Shown here piece after piece: positions 1,317 through 20,458 of a stretch of 64,000 nt of DNA; positions within the stretch are counted from its first letter, which is position 1; every line of letters begins with the position of its first letter. The notes beneath the pieces were generated by a model. The model had not been told where the DNA came from. It was given only the letters and a program-made list of their open reading frames with translations, and ran no database searches. Location: the NCBI RefSeq assembly GCF_011045215.1, contig NZ_CP049201.1. One strand, given 5' to 3'. Origin of the DNA: Escherichia coli (lineage in GTDB: Bacteria; Pseudomonadota; Gammaproteobacteria; Enterobacterales; Enterobacteriaceae). The translations under genes were made by a program, and so were the position numbers.

Positions 1317-1326
1317 TGGGGTGAAT

Positions 1327-4300
1327 ATGGCAGTAAAGATTTCAGGTGTACTGAAAGACGGCACAGGAAAACCGGTACAGAACTGCACAATCCAGCTGAA
1401 AGCAAAACGTAACAGCACCGCGGTGGTGGTGAACACGCTGGCCTCAGAAAATCCGGATGAAGCCGGGCGTTACAGCATGGACGTTGAGTACGGTCAGTAC
1501 AGCGTTATTCTGTTGGTGGAAGGATTCCCGCCGTCACATGCCGGGACCATCACCGTGTATGAAGATTCCCGACCCGGTACGCTGAATGATTTTCTCGGTG
1601 CCATGACGGAGGATGATGCCCGTCCGGAGGCTCTGCGCCGTTTTGAACTGATGGTGGAAGAGGTGGCGCGTAACGCGTCCGCGGTGGCACAGAACACGGC
1701 AGCCGCGAAGAAGTCAGCCGGCGATGCCGGCACATCTGCCCGTGAGGCGGCAACCCATGCGACTGATGCTGCAGGCTCAGCACGCGCAGCCAGCACGTCA
1801 GCCGGACAGGCCGCTTCGTCGGCTCAGTCAGCGTCTTCCAGCGCAGGAACGGCATCAACAAAGGCCACTGAAGCATCAAAAAGTGCTGCCGCTGCAGAGT
1901 CCTCAAAAAGCGCGGCAGCTACCAGTGCCAGTGCCGCGAAAACGTCAGAAACGAATGCTGCAGCGTCACAACAATCAGCAGCCACTTCTGCATCCACCGC
2001 GACCACGAAAGCGTCAGAAGCTGCCACCTCAGCCCGGGATGCGTCGGCTTCAAAAGAGGCGGCAAAATCATCAGAAACGAACGCATCCTCGAGCGCCAGT
2101 AGCGCATCTTCCTCGGCAACAGCGGCAGGAAATTCCGCGAAGGCGGCAAAAACGTCAGAGACGAACGCCAGGTCTTCTGAAACGGCAGCGGGACAGAGCG
2201 CCTCGGCTGCGGCAGGCTCAAAAACAGCGGCTGCGTCGTCTGCCAGTGCAGCGTCAACAAGTGCCGGGCAGGCCTCAGCCAGTGCCACCGCCGCCGGAAA
2301 ATCGGCAGAAAGCGCCGCATCGTCTGCTTCAACAGCCACAACGAAGGCTGGCGAAGCCACTGAACAGGCCAGCGCAGCAGCGAGGTCTGCTTCCGCAGCG
2401 AAGACATCCGAAACGAACGCGAAAGCGTCGGAAACCAGCGCAGAATCCTCAAAAACGGCTGCCGCATCGTCAGCCAGTTCGGCGGCGTCATCGGCATCAT
2501 CGGCGTCTGCTTCAAAAGATGAGGCGACCAGACAAGCGTCAGCAGCGAAGAGCAGCGCCACGACGGCATCCACGAAGGCGACAGAGGCTGCTGGCAGTGC
2601 GACGGCGGCAGCTCAGAGCAAAAGTACGGCGGAATCCGCGGCAACGCGCGCCGAGACAGCAGCTAAACGGGCAGAGGATATTGCATCCGCCGTGGCGCTT
2701 GAGGATGCAAGTACGACGAAAAAGGGGATAGTACAGCTCAGCAGTGCGACCAACAGTACGTCTGAAACGCTGGCGGCAACGCCAAAGGCAGTAAAATCAG
2801 CCTATGACAATGCAGAGAAACGTCTGCAGAAAGACCAGAACGGCGCTGATATACCCGATAAGGGATGCTTCCTGAACAACATTAACGCGGTCAGTAAAAC
2901 AGACTTTGCTGATAAGCGTGGTATGCGTTATGTGCGGGTTAACGCTCCTGCAGGTGCAACATCTGGAAAATATTACCCTGTTGTTGTTATGCGTTCTGCT
3001 GGCTCAGTAAGCGAACTGGCATCAAGAGTCATTATCACCACGGCAACGCGAACCGCAGGCGATCCGATGAATAACTGCGAGTTTAACGGATTTGTTATGC
3101 CTGGTGGCTGGACTGACAGGGGGCGTTATGCTTATGGCATGTTCTGGCAATATCAAAACAATGAACGAGCCATTCACTCAATAATGATGAGTAATAAGGG
3201 CGATGATTTGCGCTCTGTGTTCTATGTTGATGGCGCTGCTTTCCCTGTTTTTGCGTTTATTGAAGATGGCCTGTCAATATCCGCACCTGGTGCTGATCTC
3301 GTTGTTAATGATACGACCTATAAGTTTGGGGCAACAAATCCGGCGACTGAATGTATCGCGGCGGACGTTATCCTTGATTTTAAGAGTGGGCGTGGTTTTT
3401 ATGAGTCTCATTCGTTAATCGTTAACGATAACTTGTCGTGCAAAAAACTTTTTGCCACAGACGAAATTGTAGCGCGTGGTGGTAATCAGATTCGAATGAT
3501 AGGTGGGGAGTATGGGGCATTATGGCGTAATGATGGCGCTAAAACTTACCTGCTGCTTACCAATCAAGGTGATGTTTATGGTGGCTGGAATACATTAAGA
3601 CCGTTTGCTATTGATAACGCAACCGGCGAACTGGTTATTGGAACCAAACTGTCCGCAAGTCTGAACGGTAATGCATTAACAGCAACAAAGCTGCAAACGC
3701 CAAGACGGGTTTCTGGTGTTGAGTTTGATGGTTCCAAAGATATTACTTTAACCGCCGCGCATGTGGCTGCTTTTGCCAGAAGGGCAACGGATACATATGC
3801 CGATGCGGATGGTGGCGTTCCCTGGAATGCCGAATCAGGCGCTTATAATGTCACCCGCTCTGGCGACAGCTATATTCTGGTTAACTTCTATACCGGAGTC
3901 GGAAGTTGCCGGACCCTGCAGATGAAGGCGCATTACAGAAATGGTGGTCTGTTCTACCGTTCTTCAAGAGACGGTTATGGTTTTGAGGAAGACTGGGCAG
4001 AAGTTTATACCTCGAAAAATCTTCCACCAGAAAGCTACCCAGTCGGCGCACCAATCCCGTGGCCATCAGATACCGTTCCGTCTGGTTATGCCCAGATGCA
4101 GGGGCAGACTTTTGACAAATCTGCCTACCCGAAACTTGCAGCCGCTTATCCGTCAGGCGTGATCCCTGATATGCGTGGCTGGACGATTAAGGGCAAGCCC
4201 GCCAGTGGTCGTGCCGTATTGTCTCAGGAACAGGACGGCATTAAATCGCATACCCACAGCGCCAGCGCATCCAGTACGGATTTGGGTACGAAAACCACAT

Positions 4301-4728
4301 CGTCGTTTGATTACGGAACCAAATCCACGAATAACACCGGGGCGCATACCCATAGTATTAGCGGGACTGCAAATAGTGCCGGTGCGCACCAACACAAGAG
4401 TTCCGGTGCATTTGGTGGCACGAACACGAGCATTTTTCCTAATGGTTATACTGCGATTTCAAATCCAAGCGCGGGGATTATGAGCACAACAAGCGGTACT
4501 GGCCAGACTCGTAATGCAGGGAAGACATCATCAGATGGTGCTCATACCCACTCACTGTCCGGCACTGCTGCAAGCGCAGGTGCACACGCACATACTGTCG
4601 GTATTGGTGCTCATACGCACTCCGTTGCGATTGGTTCACATGGACACACCATCACCGTTAACGCTGCTGGTAACGCGGAAAACACCGTCAAAAACATCGC
4701 ATTTAACTATATTGTGAGGCTTGCATAA
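1327..4728 (+). CDS. stf: Side tail fiber protein (Stf family)
   Basis: Long ORF whose N-terminus ([26 protein letters not shown]...) matches the prophage side-tail-fiber family. It has an Ala/Ser/Thr-rich repeat tract and C-terminal GAHTHS-type repeats. ATG at 1327 is preferred over the GTG at 1321 used by the ORF track. Confidence 0.85.
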
Positions 4729-5309
4729 TGGCATTCAGAATGAGTGAACAACCACGGACCATAAAAATTTATAATCTGCTGGCCGGAACTAATGAATTTA
4801 TTGGTGAAGGTGACGCATATATTCCACCTCATACAGGTCTGCCAGCAAACAGTACCGATATTGCACCGCCAGATATTCCGGCAGGCTTCGTGGCTGTTTT
4901 CAACAGTGATGAGGCATCGTGGCATCTTGTTGAAGACCATCGGGGTAAAACGGTTTATGACGTGGCTTCCGGCGACGCGTTATTTATTTCTGAACTCGGC
5001 TTATTACCGGAAAATGTCACCTGGTTATCCCCGGAAGGGGAGTTTCAGAAGTGGAACGGCACAGCCTGGGTGAAAGATGCAGAAGCAGAAAAACTGTTCC
5101 GGATCCGGGAGGCGGAAGAAACAAAAAACAACCTGATGCAGGTAGCCAGTGAGCATATTGCGCCACTTCAGGATGCTGTAGATCTGGAAATCGCAACGGA
5201 GGAAGAAAACTCGTTGCTGGAAGCCTGGAAGAAGTATCGGGTGTTGCTGAACCGTGTTGATACATCAACTGCACCTGATATTGAGTGGCCTGTAATACCA
5301 GAAGTTTAA
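4728..5309 (+). CDS. tfa: Tail fiber assembly protein (Tfa)
   Basis: 193 aa; its start overlaps the stf stop (TAATG). Sequence and position are typical of lambdoid Tfa chaperones. Confidence 0.8.
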
Positions 5310-5314
5310 AATAA

Positions 5315-5340
5315 AAGCCCGCTTAAAATATCGCGGGCTT
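5315..5340. terminator. Bidirectional terminator hairpin between tfa (+) and the catalase gene (-)
   Basis: Stem AAGCCCGC/GCGGGCTT. On the minus strand it is followed by a T-rich tract (complement of TTTAAAATAAAA). Confidence 0.45.
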
Positions 5341-5428
5341 CGAAATATAAATGTATTTTCAGAGGCTAGAGCTTAGGATATCTCAGCGGCAATTAACTTA
5401 TGAGGGATAGCTAAATACCAGAAGATAA

Positions 5429-6319
5429 TTAGTTTTTACTATTTATCTTTGTTTGTGGTTCTCCTTCAGCAAGCTCAGCGCCAGTGACAGGATTGATGTC
5501 TTCATGGGATTTCAACCTTGTTGCCATAGCTTTTATCATAGCTTCTTGCTTGGTCGAAAGATTTATCGAGGCCTTCCCATCCCCACCGTCAACCGCTGGA
5601 ACTGGATCGGAAATATAGTCAAAGTTTTCATCACTGTTCCAACTACCTCTGACGTCTTCACCTTCTGACATGTTGTAATATACGTTTTTGTATTTCTCAA
5701 TTGGTGGTAATTTTCCTGGTGGAAAGGTGTTGCGAATTGAATGTAATGCTTTTTCAAATGAAAGCATGTGTGCTGCTTCCCTGGTCATTAAAAATGCCAG
5801 AGTGTCTTTTACTCCAGGATCATCAGTAACATTAATGAGACGTTCGTAAATGATCTTTGCCCGAGCTTCAGCTGCAATATTTGAACGAAGATCGGCCGTG
5901 ACTTCGCCAATAGTATCAACATAAGCTGCAGTCCAGGGTACTCCAGCTGAATTAGTTAATGCTGGGCCTCCTCCGTAGAGGAGAGAAGTTATATGGCTGT
6001 CATTGCCATTTTGAGTTAAGGAACGGTAAAGCTCAGCTTCATTCTCAGTTCCTTCAGCAAGTGCTCCTTTTGCACCTTTGTTGAGCATACCAACAAGAGA
6101 ACCAATAATTTCGAGATGACTTAGTTCTTCTGTTGCTATGTCCATCAGCATATCCCTTCGGCCTGCATCTTCATCACTTAAGCCTTGAGTGAAGTATCGG
6201 CATGCTGCTGCAAGCTCACCCTGTGGCCCGCCGAATTGTTCTAAAAGTAGATTAGCCAAGCCTGGGTTTGGCTCACTTACACGTACTGTATATTGAAGTT
6301 TTTTCACGTGTCTAAACAT
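5429..6319 (-). CDS. katN: Manganese (non-haem) catalase, KatN-like
   Basis: 296-aa protein with ferritin-like di-metal catalase features, resembling Salmonella KatN. A GAGGAGG ribosome-binding site lies 6-12 nt upstream. It is the last gene of a co-directional four-gene cluster. Confidence 0.8.
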   Translation of the reverse strand: MFRHVKKLQYTVRVSEPNPGLANLLLEQFGGPQGELAAACRYFTQGLSDEDAGRRDMLMDIATEELSHLEIIGSLVGMLNKGAKGALAEGTENEAELYRSLTQNGNDSHITSLLYGGGPALTNSAGVPWTAAYVDTIGEVTADLRSNIAAEARAKIIYERLINVTDDPGVKDTLAFLMTREAAHMLSFEKALHSIRNTFPPGKLPPIEKYKNVYYNMSEGEDVRGSWNSDENFDYISDPVPAVDGGDGKASINLSTKQEAMIKAMATRLKSHEDINPVTGAELAEGEPQTKINSKN

Positions 6320-6337
6320 AATGCCTCCTCAAAAGAA

Positions 6338-6844
6338 TTATTTTTTGGCTTCAACTCCATCAATTTCAGATCTGACCATGAATTGCTCAGTGGTGTCAGG
6401 AATATGGTTAAGAAGCCATTCAGCCATTTGTTTTTCTTCATTAAGAATTGCTTCAATAATGGGTACTGAAGCTGTATCACCCGCATTTTTGGCTGCTGCG
6501 AGAAGAGATGTGTAGCACGCAATTTCAAATTGTTCGAAAACATAGCCACTGATCGAACCTTTGACAATTTCATCAGATGGAAAAATTCCACCAATGGATT
6601 GCCCAAACGCGGCCATTTTACTCATAGAGTCTTTAATGACAGAGCGCGAAATATTATTACGATCAAGTATGCTTTCAAGCTGTGAAAGCTGGTTCTTTGT
6701 TTCGCTAATGTGCTGCTCAATTCTGGAACGTAACTCTGGATAGTTTTCTATCCGGCTGGCCATAGACTCAAGCATTTTTTCAGCTTGTTTCTCCATCGCA
6801 TGTGCATCACGAAGCCAGTCATGGTAATGTTCAATTCTATTCAT
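6338..6844 (-). CDS. yciE: YciE-like ferritin-like (DUF892) stress protein
   Basis: 168 aa; resembles YciE; tightly linked upstream of the catalase gene. Confidence 0.75.
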   Translation of the reverse strand: MNRIEHYHDWLRDAHAMEKQAEKMLESMASRIENYPELRSRIEQHISETKNQLSQLESILDRNNISRSVIKDSMSKMAAFGQSIGGIFPSDEIVKGSISGYVFEQFEIACYTSLLAAAKNAGDTASVPIIEAILNEEKQMAEWLLNHIPDTTEQFMVRSEIDGVEAKK

Positions 6845-6880
6845 AATCTGTTTATCCTAAAAGAAATTGAAGTCTATAGT

Positions 6881-7387
6881 TCAGGAGTTATCCTGAGCTT
6901 TTTTATTAACGTTATTAAATGCCAGGTCTGTTAATTTGACATCAGTAGCTTTTTCCTCTTCCAGTGTTTCTTTCAGGAGTTTAGCCGCTTTTTTATATCC
7001 TAATTGCTCAGCGAGTGTTACCAAAGTGCCATAACTGGCAATTTCATAGTGCTCTACTTTTTGTGCTGCAGCAATCAATGCAGCATCACGTACTTCATTT
7101 TTATCAGTGCTTTCAATTACCTCATTCGCCTCTTCGATAAGTCCTTCCATTGCGGCACACTTAATTCTTTTCAATTTAAGACCATCTTCAGAATCAACAA
7201 TCTGATCGATGCGTTCAATTTGACCATGTGTCTCATCAAGATGTGACTGAAAAGCAGCGGTTAATTTATCACTATATGCAGAGCGACTAAGTTTAGACAG
7301 TGCCTTTGTTAGTTGTTTCTCAGCGCTGTATGTATCCGATAATAAGTGGATGAAGATATCTTCAACAGATTTAATTTGCATAATCAC
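6881..7387 (-). CDS. yciF: YciF-like ferritin-like (DUF892) stress protein
   Basis: 168 aa; YciF-like sequence; same orientation and operon context. Confidence 0.75.
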   Translation of the reverse strand: MIMQIKSVEDIFIHLLSDTYSAEKQLTKALSKLSRSAYSDKLTAAFQSHLDETHGQIERIDQIVDSEDGLKLKRIKCAAMEGLIEEANEVIESTDKNEVRDAALIAAAQKVEHYEIASYGTLVTLAEQLGYKKAAKLLKETLEEEKATDVKLTDLAFNNVNKKAQDNS

Positions 7388-7400
7388 TCCAGAGTTTTCA

Positions 7401-7422
7401 CTGCGAGCCCGTAGGCTCGCAG
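7401..7422 (-). other. Perfect 9-bp stem hairpin between the yciG-like and yciF-like genes
   Basis: CTGCGAGCC-CGTA-GGCTCGCAG. No clear U-tract follows, so it is more likely an RNA stabiliser or partial attenuator than a full terminator. Confidence 0.3.
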
Positions 7423-7459
7423 TTAGCTTCAGTTATTCACGAATGTAGGGGATGATAAA

Positions 7460-7642
7460 TTAAGAGTCAGATTTACGGCCGCCACCATGGCTATTCTGAC
7501 CACCTTTTTTCCCTGCTTCTGATGCTCTTTGTGGATCGTTTTTAAAATTACCGCCACTATGTTGGCCGCCTTTACGACCAGCGTCAGAAGCTTTTTGTCG
7601 ATCTTCAGCGAAATTACCTGCACCGCCACGATGTTCGGTCAT
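7460..7642 (-). CDS. yciG: YciG-like KGG-repeat general stress protein
   Basis: 60 aa with repeated KGG and GGNF motifs (MTEHRGGAGNFAEDRQKASDAGRKGGQHSGGNFKNDPQRASEAGKKGG...); first gene of the cluster. Confidence 0.7.
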   Translation of the reverse strand: MTEHRGGAGNFAEDRQKASDAGRKGGQHSGGNFKNDPQRASEAGKKGGQNSHGGGRKSDS

Positions 7643-7707
7643 ATCATTTCTCCTCTGATTTTCAAATTGTAAATAACATGTGCCTTGTCAGCACCCAATT
7701 AACTTTA

Positions 7708-7770
7708 GTAACAAATAAGAAAGTGTCAAATAACAGATTGGTATGCGCATTTTGATGTGACAAATAACAG
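7708..7770. promoter_or_regulatory. Putative promoter/operator region of the yciG-like operon with direct repeats
   Basis: Two near-identical 14-mers, GTGTCAAATAACAG (7723-7736) and GTGACAAATAACAG (7757-7770), plus a partial third copy ACAAATAA (7711-7718), in AT-rich DNA just upstream of the yciG-like start. Confidence 0.3.
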
Positions 7771-7872
7771 TTGTAAAAAATATGTGCTCAGTGAGTATAA
7801 TTTATTGATATCTTAGTGATTAATGGGAAGTTTAGGTTGTAACTCAAAAGATTAATATACCCAAATTTACAT

Positions 7873-8211
7873 TTATATATTATTTGATGCTCCTGGTGTT
7901 GTTTTTCTCAATAAGAATACTCTGTAAAATAATTCAATCGTAAGATGGTGGTTATTCATATTTTTGAGATACTTCCTAATAGAGTCCATCCCTTGAATAA
8001 ATAATTGTTTTAAAATTTCGTCTAACAAACTAATTACAAAAACTTTTATATAACCCAAAGAATCATGATTATTCTTAATCGTCAAGATTTGACCGTAAAA
8101 ATTTAAGCACAGAAAATTGTGTGCAAGGATGTGTTGTTCAGTCTGTCGAACTTTCGATAGTTTGAGTATTAAATGATTTCCAGCCGTTATTGATTTTACG
8201 CGTAATTCCAT
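7873..8211 (-). CDS. Hypothetical protein (AT-rich orphan ORF, may be spurious)
   Basis: 112-aa ORF in a strongly AT-rich stretch between the stress operon and ydfJ. No recognisable motif and no obvious ribosome-binding site. Confidence 0.2.
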   Translation of the reverse strand: MELRVKSITAGNHLILKLSKVRQTEQHILAHNFLCLNFYGQILTIKNNHDSLGYIKVFVISLLDEILKQLFIQGMDSIRKYLKNMNNHHLTIELFYRVFLLRKTTPGASNNI

Positions 8212-8377
8212 AAAAAACTTATCTGTTGGAGAGTTATTTGGGGCATATATGGGACAGAAATCGGCCCCAGATAGACAGTGAGATCGATCTCAGGACGCTT
8301 TTGAAAAAATGCAACTATCTGAAAAAACGTAGAAAACGCCAAGGAACCCACAGGATGTGAAAAAACACCTGTGAATT

Positions 8378-9661
8378 ATGGATTTCCAGTTATATTCGCT
8401 CGGCGCAGCGTTGGTGTTTCATGAAATATTTTTTCCTGAATCATCAACGGCAATGGCGTTAATTCTGGCAATGGGAACCTACGGTGCAGGTTATGTCGCG
8501 CGTATTGTCGGAGCATTTATTTTCGGCAAAATGGGCGACAGAATAGGGCGTAAAAAAGTGCTCTTTATTACCATCACCATGATGGGGATCTGTACCACCT
8601 TAATTGGTGTGTTACCGACCTATGCACAGATTGGTGTTTTTGCACCCATCTTGCTGGTGACGCTGCGTATTATTCAGGGATTGGGTGCAGGTGCGGAAAT
8701 TTCCGGTGCCGGTACGATGCTGGCGGAATATGCGCCAAAAGGTAAGCGCGGAATTATCTCCTCATTTGTGGCTATGGGAACTAACTGCGGAACCTTAAGC
8801 GCAACGGCAATCTGGGCCTTTATGTTCTTCATTCTCAGTAAAGAGGAACTGCTGGCGTGGGGATGGCGTATACCGTTCCTGGCGAGCGTTGTCGTGATGG
8901 TCTTTGCTATCTGGTTGCGTATGAATCTGAAAGAAAGCCCGGTCTTTGAGAAGGTTAACGACAGCAACCAACCAACAGCAAAACCTGCACCTGCTGGTAG
9001 CATGTTCCAGAGCAAATCCTTCTGGCTGGCAACAGGGCTGCGTTTTGGTCAGGCAGGTAACTCCGGATTAATTCAGACTTTCCTTGCAGGCTATTTAGTG
9101 CAGACGTTATTGTTTAACAAAGCAATTCCAACAGATGCATTGATGATCAGTTCGATTCTCGGCTTTATGACCATTCCGTTCCTTGGTTGGTTATCCGATA
9201 AAATTGGTCGCCGGATCCCGTATATTATTATGAATACCTCCGCGATTGTGCTGGCATGGCCAATGCTTTCTATCATCGTAGATAAAAGCTATGCCCCGAG
9301 CACCATTATGGTTGCACTGATTGTGATTCATAACAGTGCGGTGCTGGGATTATTTGCTCTGGAAAATATTACCATGGCAGAAATGTTTGGTTGTAAAAAC
9401 CGCTTTACCCGGATGGCTATTTCAAAAGAAATTGGTGGTCTTATCGCTTCCGGTTTTGGTCCTATCCTGGCAGGTATTTTCTGCACCATGACGGAATCCT
9501 GGTATCCGATCGCCATTATGATCATGGCATATTCAGTGATTGGTTTAATCTCTGCGCTGAAAATGCCAGAAGTGAAAGACCGTGATTTAAGTGCGCTGGA
9601 AGACGCTGCGGAAGATCAACCGCGTGTTGTAAGAGCTGCGCAACCTTCCAGAAGTCTGTAA
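8378..9661 (+). CDS. ydfJ: MFS transporter YdfJ (apparently N-terminally truncated)
   Basis: 427 aa with an MFS signature (GKMGDRIGRKK loop). The first transmembrane region expected in this family appears to be missing, consistent with a gene interrupted at a prophage junction. Confidence 0.85.
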   Translation: MDFQLYSLGAALVFHEIFFPESSTAMALILAMGTYGAGYVARIVGAFIFGKMGDRIGRKKVLFITITMMGICTTLIGVLPTYAQIGVFAPILLVTLRIIQGLGAGAEISGAGTMLAEYAPKGKRGIISSFVAMGTNCGTLSATAIWAFMFFILSKEELLAWGWRIPFLASVVVMVFAIWLRMNLKESPVFEKVNDSNQPTAKPAPAGSMFQSKSFWLATGLRFGQAGNSGLIQTFLAGYLVQTLLFNKAIPTDALMISSILGFMTIPFLGWLSDKIGRRIPYIIMNTSAIVLAWPMLSIIVDKSYAPSTIMVALIVIHNSAVLGLFALENITMAEMFGCKNRFTRMAISKEIGGLIASGFGPILAGIFCTMTESWYPIAIMIMAYSVIGLISALKMPEVKDRDLSALEDAAEDQPRVVRAAQPSRSL

Positions 9662-16560: not shown

Positions 16561-16814
16561 AAATAAATTAGCCTGATGGCCTGAACTACTGGGCCATTAG
16601 GGTATTGGGTTATGCTATTTGTCATCCTTTTATTTACGATAATGCAGAGGTAATTTACAGAATTAAACACTTTTTTATCCGCTGATTTTGTTTTAAATCA
16701 CAATGTTATCTCAGAAATGACTCATAACTTCGGATTTCTATGAAAATATTGACGTAATTTTGCTTTTCTCTCGTTAGAATAGCGCACACAAGGAACTGTG
16801 AAAAAGGAGTGGCA

Positions 16815-17705
16815 ATGATCAAGAAGACAACGGAAATTGATGCCATCTTGTTAAATCTCAATAAGGCTATCGATGCCCACTACCAGTGGCTGGTGAGTAT
16901 GTTTCACAGCGTGGTCGCGAGAGATGCCAGTAAGCCAGAAATAACGGATAACCATTCTTATGGACTGTGCCAGTTTGGTCGGTGGATTGATCATCTGGGG
17001 CCACTCGATAACGATGAATTACCTTACGTTCGGCTAATGGATTCTGCCCATCAACATATGCATAACTGTGGTCGGGAATTAATGCTGGCTATTGTTGAAA
17101 ATCACTGGCAGGACGCGCATTTCGACGCCTTTCAGGAGGGGTTGCTTTCTTTTACTGCGGCATTAACCGATTACAAAATTTATTTGCTGACGATCCGTAG
17201 CAATATGGATGTTTTGACGGGATTGCCGGGTCGTCGGGTTCTTGATGAATCCTTTGATCATCAGTTACGCAACGCTGAGCCTCTGAATCTTTATTTAATG
17301 TTGTTGGATATTGACCGATTTAAATTGGTTAATGATACCTACGGGCATTTAATCGGCGATGTAGTATTACGCACCCTGGCAACTTACTTAGCCAGTTGGA
17401 CGCGTGATTACGAAACGGTTTATCGCTACGGGGGCGAAGAATTTATCATTATTGTCAAAGCGGCTAATGATGAAGAAGCATGTCGTGCAGGTGTCAGAAT
17501 TTGCCAGTTAGTCGATAACCATGCCATCACACATTCTGAAGGGCATATCAACATTACCGTGACAGCAGGTGTCAGTCGCGCATTTCCTGAAGAGCCTCTG
17601 GATGTGGTCATTGGAAGAGCAGACCGGGCAATGTATGAGGGTAAGCAAACCGGAAGAAATCGCTGCATGTTTATTGACGAACAAAATGTGATTAACCGAG
17701 TTTAA
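16815..17705 (+). CDS. dgcZ: Zinc-sensing diguanylate cyclase DgcZ (YdeH)
   Basis: N-terminal zinc-binding (CZB) domain and C-terminal GGDEF domain (RYGGEEF); ribosome-binding site AAGGAG; start at MIKKTTEID. Confidence 0.85.
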   Translation: MIKKTTEIDAILLNLNKAIDAHYQWLVSMFHSVVARDASKPEITDNHSYGLCQFGRWIDHLGPLDNDELPYVRLMDSAHQHMHNCGRELMLAIVENHWQDAHFDAFQEGLLSFTAALTDYKIYLLTIRSNMDVLTGLPGRRVLDESFDHQLRNAEPLNLYLMLLDIDRFKLVNDTYGHLIGDVVLRTLATYLASWTRDYETVYRYGGEEFIIIVKAANDEEACRAGVRICQLVDNHAITHSEGHINITVTAGVSRAFPEEPLDVVIGRADRAMYEGKQTGRNRCMFIDEQNVINRV

Positions 17706-17820
17706 GCTCCGTTTAACATTCATTGAGAAAACTGATGCTACTGTGTCAACGATCCGTTATCAGTGCAGGAAAATGCCTGTTAGCGTAAAAGCAAAACACA
17801 AATCTATCCATGCAAGCATT

Positions 17821-17849
17821 CACCGCCGGTTTACTGGCGGTTTTTTTTT
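17821..17849 (+). terminator. Rho-independent terminator after dgcZ
   Basis: Stem CCGCC...GGCGG followed by a T9 run. Confidence 0.5.
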
Positions 17850-17924
17850 CGCCGTCATAAAAATCAGGCCCCTTGTACACAACTGTAACAAGGGGCCGGT
17901 TAGGTGAGGGATTATCTCCGTTCA

Positions 17925-18020
17925 TTAGTCATCCCATTTGTGGCTGAAATACGCGGCCAGAAAACCAGAAAATAAAATTATTCCCAGTACGGCCATAAAA
18001 ACATTCATATTACCCAGCAT
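17925..18020 (-). CDS. mgtS: Small membrane protein MgtS (YneM)
   Basis: Minus-strand translation gives MLGNMNVFMAVLGIILFSGFLAAYFSHKWDD (31 aa), matching MgtS. Too short to appear in the ORF track. Confidence 0.7.
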   Translation of the reverse strand: MLGNMNVFMAVLGIILFSGFLAAYFSHKWDD

Positions 18021-19528: not shown

Positions 19529-20428
19529 ATGTCGCGAAAAGATGGGGTGTTGGCGCTACTGGTAGTGGTCGTATGGGGGCTAAATTTTGTGGTCATCAAA
19601 GTGGGGCTTCATAACATGCCACCGCTGATGCTGGCCGGTTTGCGCTTTATGCTGGTCGCTTTTCCGGCCATCTTTTTTGTCGCACGACCGAAAGTACCAC
19701 TGAATTTGCTGCTGGGGTATGGATTAACCATCAGTTTTGCGCAGTTTGCCTTTCTGTTCTGCGCCATTAATTTTGGTATGCCTGCTGGACTGGCTTCGCT
19801 GGTGTTACAGGCACAGGCGTTTTTTACTATCGTGCTTGGCGCGTTTACTTTCGGGGAGCGACTGCATGGCAAACAATTGGCGGGGATCGCCTTAGCGATT
19901 TTTGGCGTACTGGTGTTAATCGAAGATAGCTTTAACGGTCAGCATGTGGCGATGCTCGGTTTTATTTTGACTCTGGCAGCGGCATTTAGTTGGGCGAGTG
20001 GCAATATCTTCAACAAAAAGATCATGTCTCATTCATCCCGTCCGGCGGTAATGTCTCTGGTCGTCTGGAGCGCATTAATCCCGATAATTCCGTTTTTTGT
20101 CGCCTCGCTCATTCTCGATGGCTCCGGAAAAATGATTCACAGTCTGGTCACTATCGACATGACCACCATTCTGGCGTTGATGTATCTGGCATTTGTAGCG
20201 ACGATAGTTGGCTACGGGATTTGGGGTACGCTGCTTGGACGCTATGAAACATGGCGTGTCGCACCATTATCATTACTGGTGCCGGTAGTCGGTCTGGCAA
20301 GTGCAGCGTTACTGCTGGATGAACGCTTAACAGGTCTGCAATTCTTAGGGGCTGTGCTCATTATGGCCGGACTGTATATCAATGTATTTGGTTTGCAGTG
20401 GCGTAAAGCGGTGAAGGTAAGAGGTTAA
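19529..20428 (+). CDS. eamA: Cysteine/O-acetylserine exporter EamA (YdeD), DMT family
   Basis: Start at MSRKDGVLALLVVVVWGLNFVVIKVGL; 299 aa with two EamA-type repeats. Confidence 0.85.
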   Translation: MSRKDGVLALLVVVVWGLNFVVIKVGLHNMPPLMLAGLRFMLVAFPAIFFVARPKVPLNLLLGYGLTISFAQFAFLFCAINFGMPAGLASLVLQAQAFFTIVLGAFTFGERLHGKQLAGIALAIFGVLVLIEDSFNGQHVAMLGFILTLAAAFSWASGNIFNKKIMSHSSRPAVMSLVVWSALIPIIPFFVASLILDGSGKMIHSLVTIDMTTILALMYLAFVATIVGYGIWGTLLGRYETWRVAPLSLLVPVVGLASAALLLDERLTGLQFLGAVLIMAGLYINVFGLQWRKAVKVRG

Positions 20429-20431
20429 CAA

Positions 20432-20449
20432 GCCCCGATATGCCGGGGC
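20432..20449. terminator. Hairpin between convergent eamA and marB
   Basis: Stem GCCCCG/CGGGGC with a 6-nt loop, immediately after the eamA stop. Confidence 0.4.
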
Positions 20450-20458
20450 CTGAATATA

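Follow-up and report, generated by a model that had tools for sequence, protein, structure and literature searches.

The Escherichia coli contig NZ_CP049201.1 (assembly GCF_011045215.1) carries, within the 64,000-nucleotide stretch analysed here and called the window throughout, a stress operon of four genes that lie in the order yciG, yciF, yciE, katN on the minus strand, with spacers of 77, 36 and 18 bp. The operon is very probably cargo (a "moron") of a lambdoid prophage in ydfJ, a self-contained, xenologous cassette of about 2.8 kb that fills a variable slot bounded by the tail fibre assembly gene tfa and attR. The genes are:

7460..7642, minus strand: yciG-like gene, small hydrophilic general stress protein of 60 amino acids (two PF10685 matches)
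6881..7381, minus strand: yciF-like gene, DUF892 protein of 166 amino acids, probable ferroxidase (PF05974, 3e-54; PDB 2GS4)
6338..6844, minus strand: yciE-like gene, DUF892 ferritin-like protein of 168 amino acids (PF05974, 1e-50; PDB 3OGH)
5429..6319, minus strand: katN, manganese (non-haem) catalase of 296 amino acids (open reading frame, Pfam PF05067 and PDB match)

A mechanical call of the yciF-like frame gives 6881-7387 (168 amino acids); the coordinates listed use the ATG of RefSeq and of native YciF.

An earlier note on this DNA had read the cluster as a KGG protein, two DUF892 proteins and a manganese catalase, and the open reading frames, Pfam and PDB all agree with it: the four genes are confirmed as real, with the catalytic residues of KatN and of the yciF-like protein retained. 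KatN matches the Mn_catalase family PF05067 at 1.1e-86 over residues 1-270. Its sequence matches in PDB are the Lactobacillus plantarum manganese catalase 1JKU (5e-35), 6J42 and 4R42 (about 1e-46) and Anabaena Alr3090 (5e-47). The dimanganese ligands of 1JKU, which are E35, E66, H69, E148 and H181 in the numbering of the structure paper, align with E35, E65, H68, E151 and H184 of KatN. All five ligands, whose loss was to have counted against the catalase assignment, are thus present, as is E181, the equivalent of 1JKU E178. The yciF-like protein is matched by the structure of E. coli YciF (2GS4) at 2e-82 and keeps Q54, E113 and E143 in Salmonella YciF numbering, the residues on which Salmonella YciF depends to bind iron and act as a ferroxidase (bioRxiv 10.1101/2023.01.20.524870). 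The yciE-like protein matches YciE (3OGH) at 3e-97, and the two KGG repeats of the yciG-like protein span residues 10-30 and 32-52. None of the YciE-, YciF- and YciG-like proteins has a match in NCBIfam, and the assignments come from Pfam and PDB.

The cluster is a xenologue and not the native yciGFE copy. The native context is trpA-yciG-yciF-yciE-ompW in E. coli and trpA-yciG-yciF-yciE-katN-ompW in Salmonella. The statement in the earlier note that K-12 has its yciGFE genes elsewhere, without the catalase, fits the native locus, and the four-gene order is indeed that of Salmonella, at amino acid identities of 80-83%. The proteins of the window were compared with both species. The YciG-like protein is 83% identical to native E. 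coli YciG and 83% to that of Salmonella, the YciF-like protein 80% and 80%, and the YciE-like protein 88% and 83%; KatN is 82% identical to Salmonella KatN and has no counterpart gene at the native E. coli locus. In a distant DNA search of 5426 complete E. coli genomes, 5422 have the canonical yciGFE genes (about 74% identical), whereas 380 carry the four-gene cassette. The window operon does not occupy the trpA-ompW position but sits between tfa and attR of the prophage in ydfJ. Among named strains with the window arrangement the closest is E. coli 55989 (99.4% over 5310-8377), in which the cassette coexists with canonical yciE-yciF-yciG beside trpA. The different position, the DNA identity of about 74% and the retention of the native copy in 55989 together identify the cluster as an extra xenologous copy rather than an orthologue, and the possibility that it is the only yciGFE copy in its ordinary context is thereby disposed of.

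These comparisons also bear on whether the operon is a recent intragenomic duplicate, a paralogue of the strain's own yciGFE that gained its catalase gene later. The YciE-like protein is a little nearer to native E. coli YciE than to Salmonella YciE, as a duplicate would be. Against this stand the low DNA identity to native yciGFE and the synonymous sites of native E. coli yciE, which are saturated relative to the cassette and too diverged for distance correction (yciE only). The YciF-like protein is equidistant from its two relatives, the katN-yciE junction and gene order are those of native four-gene loci in other Enterobacteriaceae, and the best chromosomal KatN matches are at most 87% identical. 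A recent duplication is accordingly very hard to credit. The known relatives differ from the cassette in distinct ways. E. coli K-12 and B have a native yciGFE with the same gene order and with homologous YciG, YciF and YciE, but it lacks a catalase gene and is present in nearly all E. coli. The Salmonella enterica yciGFE-katN locus shares order, orientation, the core promoter block and a hairpin between yciG and yciF with the cassette; it is chromosomal, at trpA-ompW, whereas the cassette is in a prophage, and the DNA upstream beyond about -40 is unrelated and the C-terminal tail of KatN diverged. Low G+C of the coding part was rejected as evidence of transfer, as native E. coli yciGFE also has about 42% G+C.

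The position of the cassette within the prophage is defined by the following features.

4728..5309, plus strand: tfa, tail fibre assembly gene and left neighbour (open reading frame; PHROG 105 "tail fiber assembly", 3e-99)
5291..8151, minus strand: whole cassette of about 2.8 kb, right limit about 8104-8151 (homology breaks against cassette-free prophages)
8105..8145: decayed hairpin element (GCAGCACG...TGCAAG.ACGTGCTGCGGTTGG) (junction comparison with L002, L028, L012 and L023)
8152..8389: phage arm with attR (90% identity to the stretch abutting the integrase gene of the free phage Tritos)
8378..9661, plus strand: ydfJ', gene of a major facilitator superfamily transporter without its N-terminus (TIGR00883 match from profile position 7)

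To the left of the operon lie lom, a long stf and then tfa, and to the right the ydfJ remnant, so the placement of the cluster between a tail-fibre module and a truncated ydfJ in the earlier note holds. RefSeq marks ydfJ "missing N-terminus" in strains 55989, HS and Z22-6; the N-terminus is missing because the prophage inserted there, and the att core overlaps the first 12 bp or so of the remnant. Homology to other ydfJ-site prophages (L012 and L011), which are about 97% identical otherwise, stops at 5290 and resumes at 8152, and in place of the cassette they hold pinQ-ydfK-ynfT. All comparisons put the left junction at the same point, 19 bp short of the tfa stop, and the last 19 bp of tfa (from 5291) are cassette-linked sequence. 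The phage arm at 8152-8389 is found in the pinQ-type prophages at ydfJ as well. Because the DNA to the right of the cluster is phage DNA, the cassette lies within the prophage and not just beside it. Its carriage by a prophage, as the earlier note had it, is therefore correct, and the location is in fact internal, with the phage arm adjoining int in Tritos. The right end at 7800 given in that note does not stand: it cuts through the regulatory region, which is conserved to 7924, and the cassette runs on to about 8104-8151.

The same slot is occupied in other prophages. In O157:H7 (L002) the cassette is a 2.8-kb insertion between tfa and a class I S-adenosylmethionine (SAM) methyltransferase gene. 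The prophage at the ompW site of 55989 (L028) represents this slot without the cassette, with 30 bp from tfa to the methyltransferase gene as against 2.8 kb in O157 (L002 8983-11783). The hairpin element forms the right edge of the post-tfa cargo slot in several prophages, with copies at L002 11760-11800, L028 6670-6710, L012 7548-7590 and L023 9675-9715. The window copy has many C-to-T changes and folds no better than shuffled sequences. This slot-edge element might serve as a terminator or mark a recombination boundary. Neither direct nor inverted repeats were found flanking 5291 or 8104-8151, nor was a Din-type crossover site (AAACCNNGGTTT) near the junctions, and transposon-like or invertase-mediated mobility was rejected on these grounds. 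The cassette lies within the prophage boundaries and is present or absent among otherwise homologous prophages, in the manner of morons. Lambdoid-prophage morons of the tfa-att slot, such as pinQ-ydfK-ynfT of Qin, likewise vary between homologous prophages and have their own promoter and terminator, which are predicted in the cassette. The content differs: a host-type stress operon here, an invertase and a cold-shock-like gene in the Qin moron.

A chromosomal island that merely abuts the prophage, whether ancestral at ydfJ or independently inserted, was the other explanation for the position. It draws on the lack of an integrase or phage gene between the cluster and ydfJ, RefSeq annotating nothing in 7643-8377. 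The right-hand DNA is nevertheless the arm that lies beside int in a free phage. Prophages that are otherwise identical hold either the cluster or pinQ-ydfK-ynfT, and the cluster is also found behind tfa at further chromosomal sites and in a second genus. The island explanation is already contradicted by these facts and retains almost no probability. The exact cassette limits, the location inside the prophage and the sharing of the slot by several prophages are what the present analysis adds to earlier work, along with the purifying selection, the conserved core promoter of sigma-S-like type and the intergenic hairpin described below.

Two genes on the left arm show further features. The stf gene (1321-4728, plus strand) contains an Ala/Ser/Thr-rich low-complexity stretch at about amino acids 130-470, with a G+C content of about 0.6, and its alignment with 55989 has an internal gap that leaves window 2787-4044 unmatched. 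An Rfam match to IS009 (5071-5269, plus strand; 228 bits, gathering score 117) lies wholly within the 3' part of tfa and stops about 20 bp short of the left junction of the cassette.

The presence or absence of the cassette across E. coli genomes, which the earlier note had proposed to examine for a link to the prophage, follows several prophage backbones among the 380 carriers. It sits in the prophage at ydfJ in only 3 of the 5426 genomes (100181, fS25a and 55989). Among the carriers sampled with the alternative right junction, where the match ends at 8113, are O157:H7 strains and GF43. The O157:H7 cassette is 96.4% identical over 4560-8113 and follows tfa in a CP-933X-type prophage next to ompT. 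Strain A34 has it near yfhH, behind a fragment of tfa, in a prophage whose baseplate genes are of the myovirus type. The cassette is thus found in at least three E. coli prophage backbones and in one Citrobacter remnant. The latter, in Citrobacter cronae, is found next to phoPQ together with DinI and with fragments of J and of an integrase. It shares 94% identity with the window copy in KatN and 91.8% in DNA over window 5427-7924. In IMG/VR the cassette occurs on nine prophage contigs, all four proteins have full-length PHROG families, and the exact KatN sequence of the window is recorded from 125 contigs. A horizontally acquired cassette, as the earlier note had supposed, is what the xenology and the occurrence in several prophages and in another genus describe. 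Between the window and the Citrobacter copy the ratio of nonsynonymous to synonymous substitution rates (dN/dS) is 0.03-0.15 at dS 0.22-0.31, and all four genes are therefore under purifying selection. Two short "phage" records, OR845539.1 and OR851627.1 (2.2 kb and 1.6 kb), match katN-yciE at just about 75%. One of them is labelled O157:H7 ATCC 43895 but is distinct from the 96-99% identical copy that this strain has of its own; both look like Salmonella-type chromosomal fragments. The same four-gene module, katN-yciEFG, is described as cargo of ICEPanBD442 of Pantoea ananatis (PMC4458695), likened to the cassette by description alone; its vehicle is an integrative conjugative element rather than a phage, and its lineage is different.

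How the module reached phages can be proposed only tentatively. In a protein search the best chromosomal KatN matches are at most 87% identical (Kosakonia, [Kluyvera] intestini and Phytobacter, with Salmonella at 84%), and the phage-borne copies form a group at 94% identity or more. The module may be old and evolving independently, captured once by an ompW-integrating lambdoid phage from an unsampled enterobacterial ompW-katN-yciEFG locus through imprecise excision of the lambda-bio kind, and then spread by recombination between unrelated backbones and genera at a fixed slot, delimited by the tfa 3' end and the hairpin element; this scenario is possible, though it falls short of being probable. 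It is suggested by the geometry of the ompW-site prophage of 55989, which puts tfa-methyltransferase-attR beside canonical yciE-yciF-yciG in the same relative orientation. A sequence scar of such a capture was looked for. Local alignments of 5291-5428 with the PPompW attachment duplication, with the ompW 3' ends of E. coli and Salmonella and with the attL of 55989 do not beat shuffled sequences, and 7736-8151 aligns with native trpA-yciG intergenic DNA no better than shuffles do. As no sequence scar was found, geometry is the whole basis of the capture proposal. The 55989 prophage in question is a 50-kb lambdoid element (1,408,280-1,458,422) at the 3' end of ompW, with its tail-fibre end beside canonical yciE-yciF-yciG, and the PPompW phages and P-EibA show the same ompW geometry.

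The regulatory features of the cassette, all on its minus strand, are these.

7699..7729, minus strand: predicted core promoter, -35 TTGACA, 16-nt spacer, C-TAAAGT-TAA (best match of a promoter scan, 10/12)
7723..7770, minus strand: two copies of the 14-mer CTGTTATTTG(T/A)CAC at 7723-7736 and 7757-7770, 34 bp apart (repeat search)
7643..8104, minus strand: AT-rich upstream region of 29% G+C (composition), presumed H-NS target
7401..7422, minus strand: GC-rich hairpin with a stem of 9-10 bp and no U-tract, between the yciG-like and yciF-like genes (fold -24.7 kcal/mol, z = -3.7)
5305..5341, minus strand: predicted intrinsic terminator with arms AAGCCCGC and GCGGGCTT, then UUUUAUUUU (sequence and fold)

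In the predicted core promoter the -35 hexamer TTGACA is at 7729-7724 and C-TAAAGT-TAA at 7708-7699. A multiple alignment matches this block, TTGACA-16 nt-CTAAAGTTAA, to the native yciG promoters of E. coli, Salmonella and Kluyvera. Both the C at -13 and the TAA that follows the hexamer are features of the sigma-S type, and the core promoter of the yciG-like gene is conserved and looks sigma-S-like. GAGGA stands 8 nt before the ATG of that gene. The proximal copy of the 14-mer contains the -35 hexamer, and the two copies are possible regulator sites (for OxyR, McbR or another protein). BLAST homology to native loci is confined to 5577-7654. The AT-rich boundary described in the earlier note is real for the upstream DNA: 7643-8151 has 29% G+C as against 47% for the window, and conservation with the Citrobacter copy extends upstream to 7924. 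A frame of 112 amino acids at 7873-8211 was considered as an extra gene and treated as spurious, being without an NCBIfam or PHROG match and uncalled by RefSeq in 55989.

The hairpin at 7401-7422 is shared with the native loci of E. coli and Salmonella and with that of Kluyvera, where two changes compensate each other; it appears to be a structural feature of the operon family. The U-run of the predicted terminator overlaps the stop codon of tfa. A pattern scan did not list this terminator at 5305-5341, which is attributed to its loop length. Rfam gave no structured RNA match within 5291-8151.

The operon is already published for O157:H7, where the experiments proposed in the earlier note have largely been carried out on an essentially identical cassette. 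The proteins of the window differ from those of O157:H7 strain 86-24 at no residue in YciG, one in YciF, none in YciE and 3 of 296 in KatN. The O157:H7 genes z1921-z1924 (the ECs1652 region of CP-933X) form the same cassette, with a DNA identity of 96.4% over 4560-8113 and the same left junction in tfa. The two copies differ in host site, which is ompT/DLP12 in O157:H7 and ydfJ/Qin in the window, and in the right neighbour, a class I SAM methyltransferase gene in the former and the phage arm with attR in the latter. According to Wan et al. 2017 (PMC5363993), EDL933 Z1921 is KatN, 84% identical to Salmonella KatN, and katN with z1922-z1924 is a horizontally acquired operon homologous to yciGFEkatN in the cryptic prophage CP-933X. 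That paper describes purified EDL933 KatN as active (268 U/mg) and an O157 katN deletion mutant as sensitive to H2O2. RpoS is given there as essential for katN expression, OxyR as a positive regulator and H-NS as repressing it 450-fold, and KatN is described as secreted in a manner that depends on type VI secretion (by the T6SS), with a role in macrophage survival. In Dong and Schellhorn 2009 (PMC2907692), Z1922, Z1923 and Z1924 depend on RpoS 35-, 64- and 137-fold and are among the most RpoS-dependent genes of EDL933. The hairpin between yciG and yciF may lie behind this gradient of 137-, 64- and 35-fold. A pangenome paper finds the katN gene (ECs_1652) in almost all genomes of sequence type 11 (ST11).

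Catalase activity, control by RpoS, OxyR and H-NS, and secretion are thus properties of the O157:H7 copy, 99% identical to the one considered here; for the window strain we infer the exact promoter, the terminator and activity of the operon. A single promoter upstream of the yciG-like gene would drive all four genes, with transcription ending at the hairpin and U-run just past katN. H-NS would silence the operon during growth through the AT-rich upstream DNA, and RpoS, aided by OxyR, would switch it on in stationary phase. KatN would then remove H2O2 as a dimanganese, haem-independent catalase. The YciF-like and YciE-like proteins, as probable di-iron ferritin-like proteins, would keep Fenton chemistry in check by oxidising Fe(II) or sequestering it, and the YciG-like product would serve as a small hydrophilic KGG-repeat stress protein. 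The predicted net effect is a lysogenic conversion that makes the bacterium tolerant of peroxide and of stationary-phase stress. Where a strain has T6SS-2, export of KatN into host cells may come in addition.

Several observations weigh against a functional stress cassette. KatN scores below the cut-off of the NCBIfam equivalog model ManCatBAC (167 vs 350 bits), a model taken to describe a different subfamily. One IMG/VR copy (UViG 2700989234_000006) has a 1.3-kb insertion of the IS629/IS1203 type in its yciE-like gene (L016 2701-4006), the two aligned parts sharing 9 bp (window 6779-6787), and truncated fragments of 112 and 157 amino acids occur in the protein cluster. Upstream beyond about -40 the DNA cannot be aligned with native yciG promoters, and regulation by YncC/McbR as in the native operon cannot be assumed for the cassette on that account; the binding motif published for this regulator is a loosely defined AT-rich one. 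In this strain the transcription start is a prediction, as are the terminator and the sites for H-NS and RpoS. Wan et al. (PMC5363993) also describe the O157 katN deletion mutant as being as virulent as the wild type in mice, so any fitness benefit is conditional.

Some of these facts would suit silent or decaying cargo, that is, H-NS-silenced DNA without function in this strain: the disrupted and truncated copies and, for O157, the 450-fold repression and the full virulence of the mutant. Silence is improbable all the same. The four frames are intact, KatN and the YciF-like protein keep their catalytic residues, dN/dS stays at 0.03-0.15 over a dS of 0.22-0.31, and the O157 copy is strongly RpoS-dependent, with an H2O2 growth phenotype. 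Less easily set aside, though still rather unlikely, is a role of KatN mainly as a secreted T6SS-2 effector that detoxifies reactive oxygen species of the host cell, rather than as a cytoplasmic catalase of stationary phase. T6SS-dependent secretion and better macrophage survival are described for the 99%-identical O157 protein by Wan et al., and later papers repeat the claim. The secretion evidence comes from one laboratory, however, no T6SS genes were found within the 64-kb window, the operon partners are cytoplasmic stress proteins, and the cited literature (Robbe-Saule 2001 and Beraud 2010) presents the native operon of Salmonella as a stress locus under sigma-S control. Stress-protective prophage cargo remains the favoured reading of the operon.

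Elsewhere the window differs from 55989 or carries features apart from the cassette. An Rfam match to the Hfq-binding small RNA STnc560 (17717-17931, plus strand; 278 bits) lies directly downstream of a 298-amino-acid frame at 16809-17705 that corresponds in position to dgcZ of 55989. At 49055 hipA, the toxin gene of hipBA, has about 730 bp fewer than in 55989 (L026 8006-8737), which leaves a frame of 169 amino acids at 49048-49557; hipA looks internally deleted in this strain. Between eamA and marC (window 20428-20453) a 6.3-kb segment of 55989 is missing (L026 37343-43617), which encodes a GntR regulator, phosphotransferase system components IIA, IIB and IIC, a carbohydrate porin and a 6-phospho-beta-glucosidase. 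The window therefore comes from a strain other than 55989.

The practical gain from the locus is limited, because the O157 copy has already been characterised, and consists in the transfer of the O157 results, the exact limits and the recognition of the tfa-att slot as a shared cargo site. Those results are transferable to strains that have the cassette in a ydfJ-site prophage. For the biology of E. coli, the locus illustrates clearly how a stress operon of the host type can bring about lysogenic conversion. About 7% of sequenced E. coli, O157:H7 for the most part but also enteroaggregative strains like 55989, receive from a phage a haem-independent catalase and extra ferritin-like proteins, and, to judge from the O157 copy, the genes conferred are under the control of RpoS and H-NS. 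The cassette may aid survival against peroxide in stationary phase, in macrophages or outside the host.

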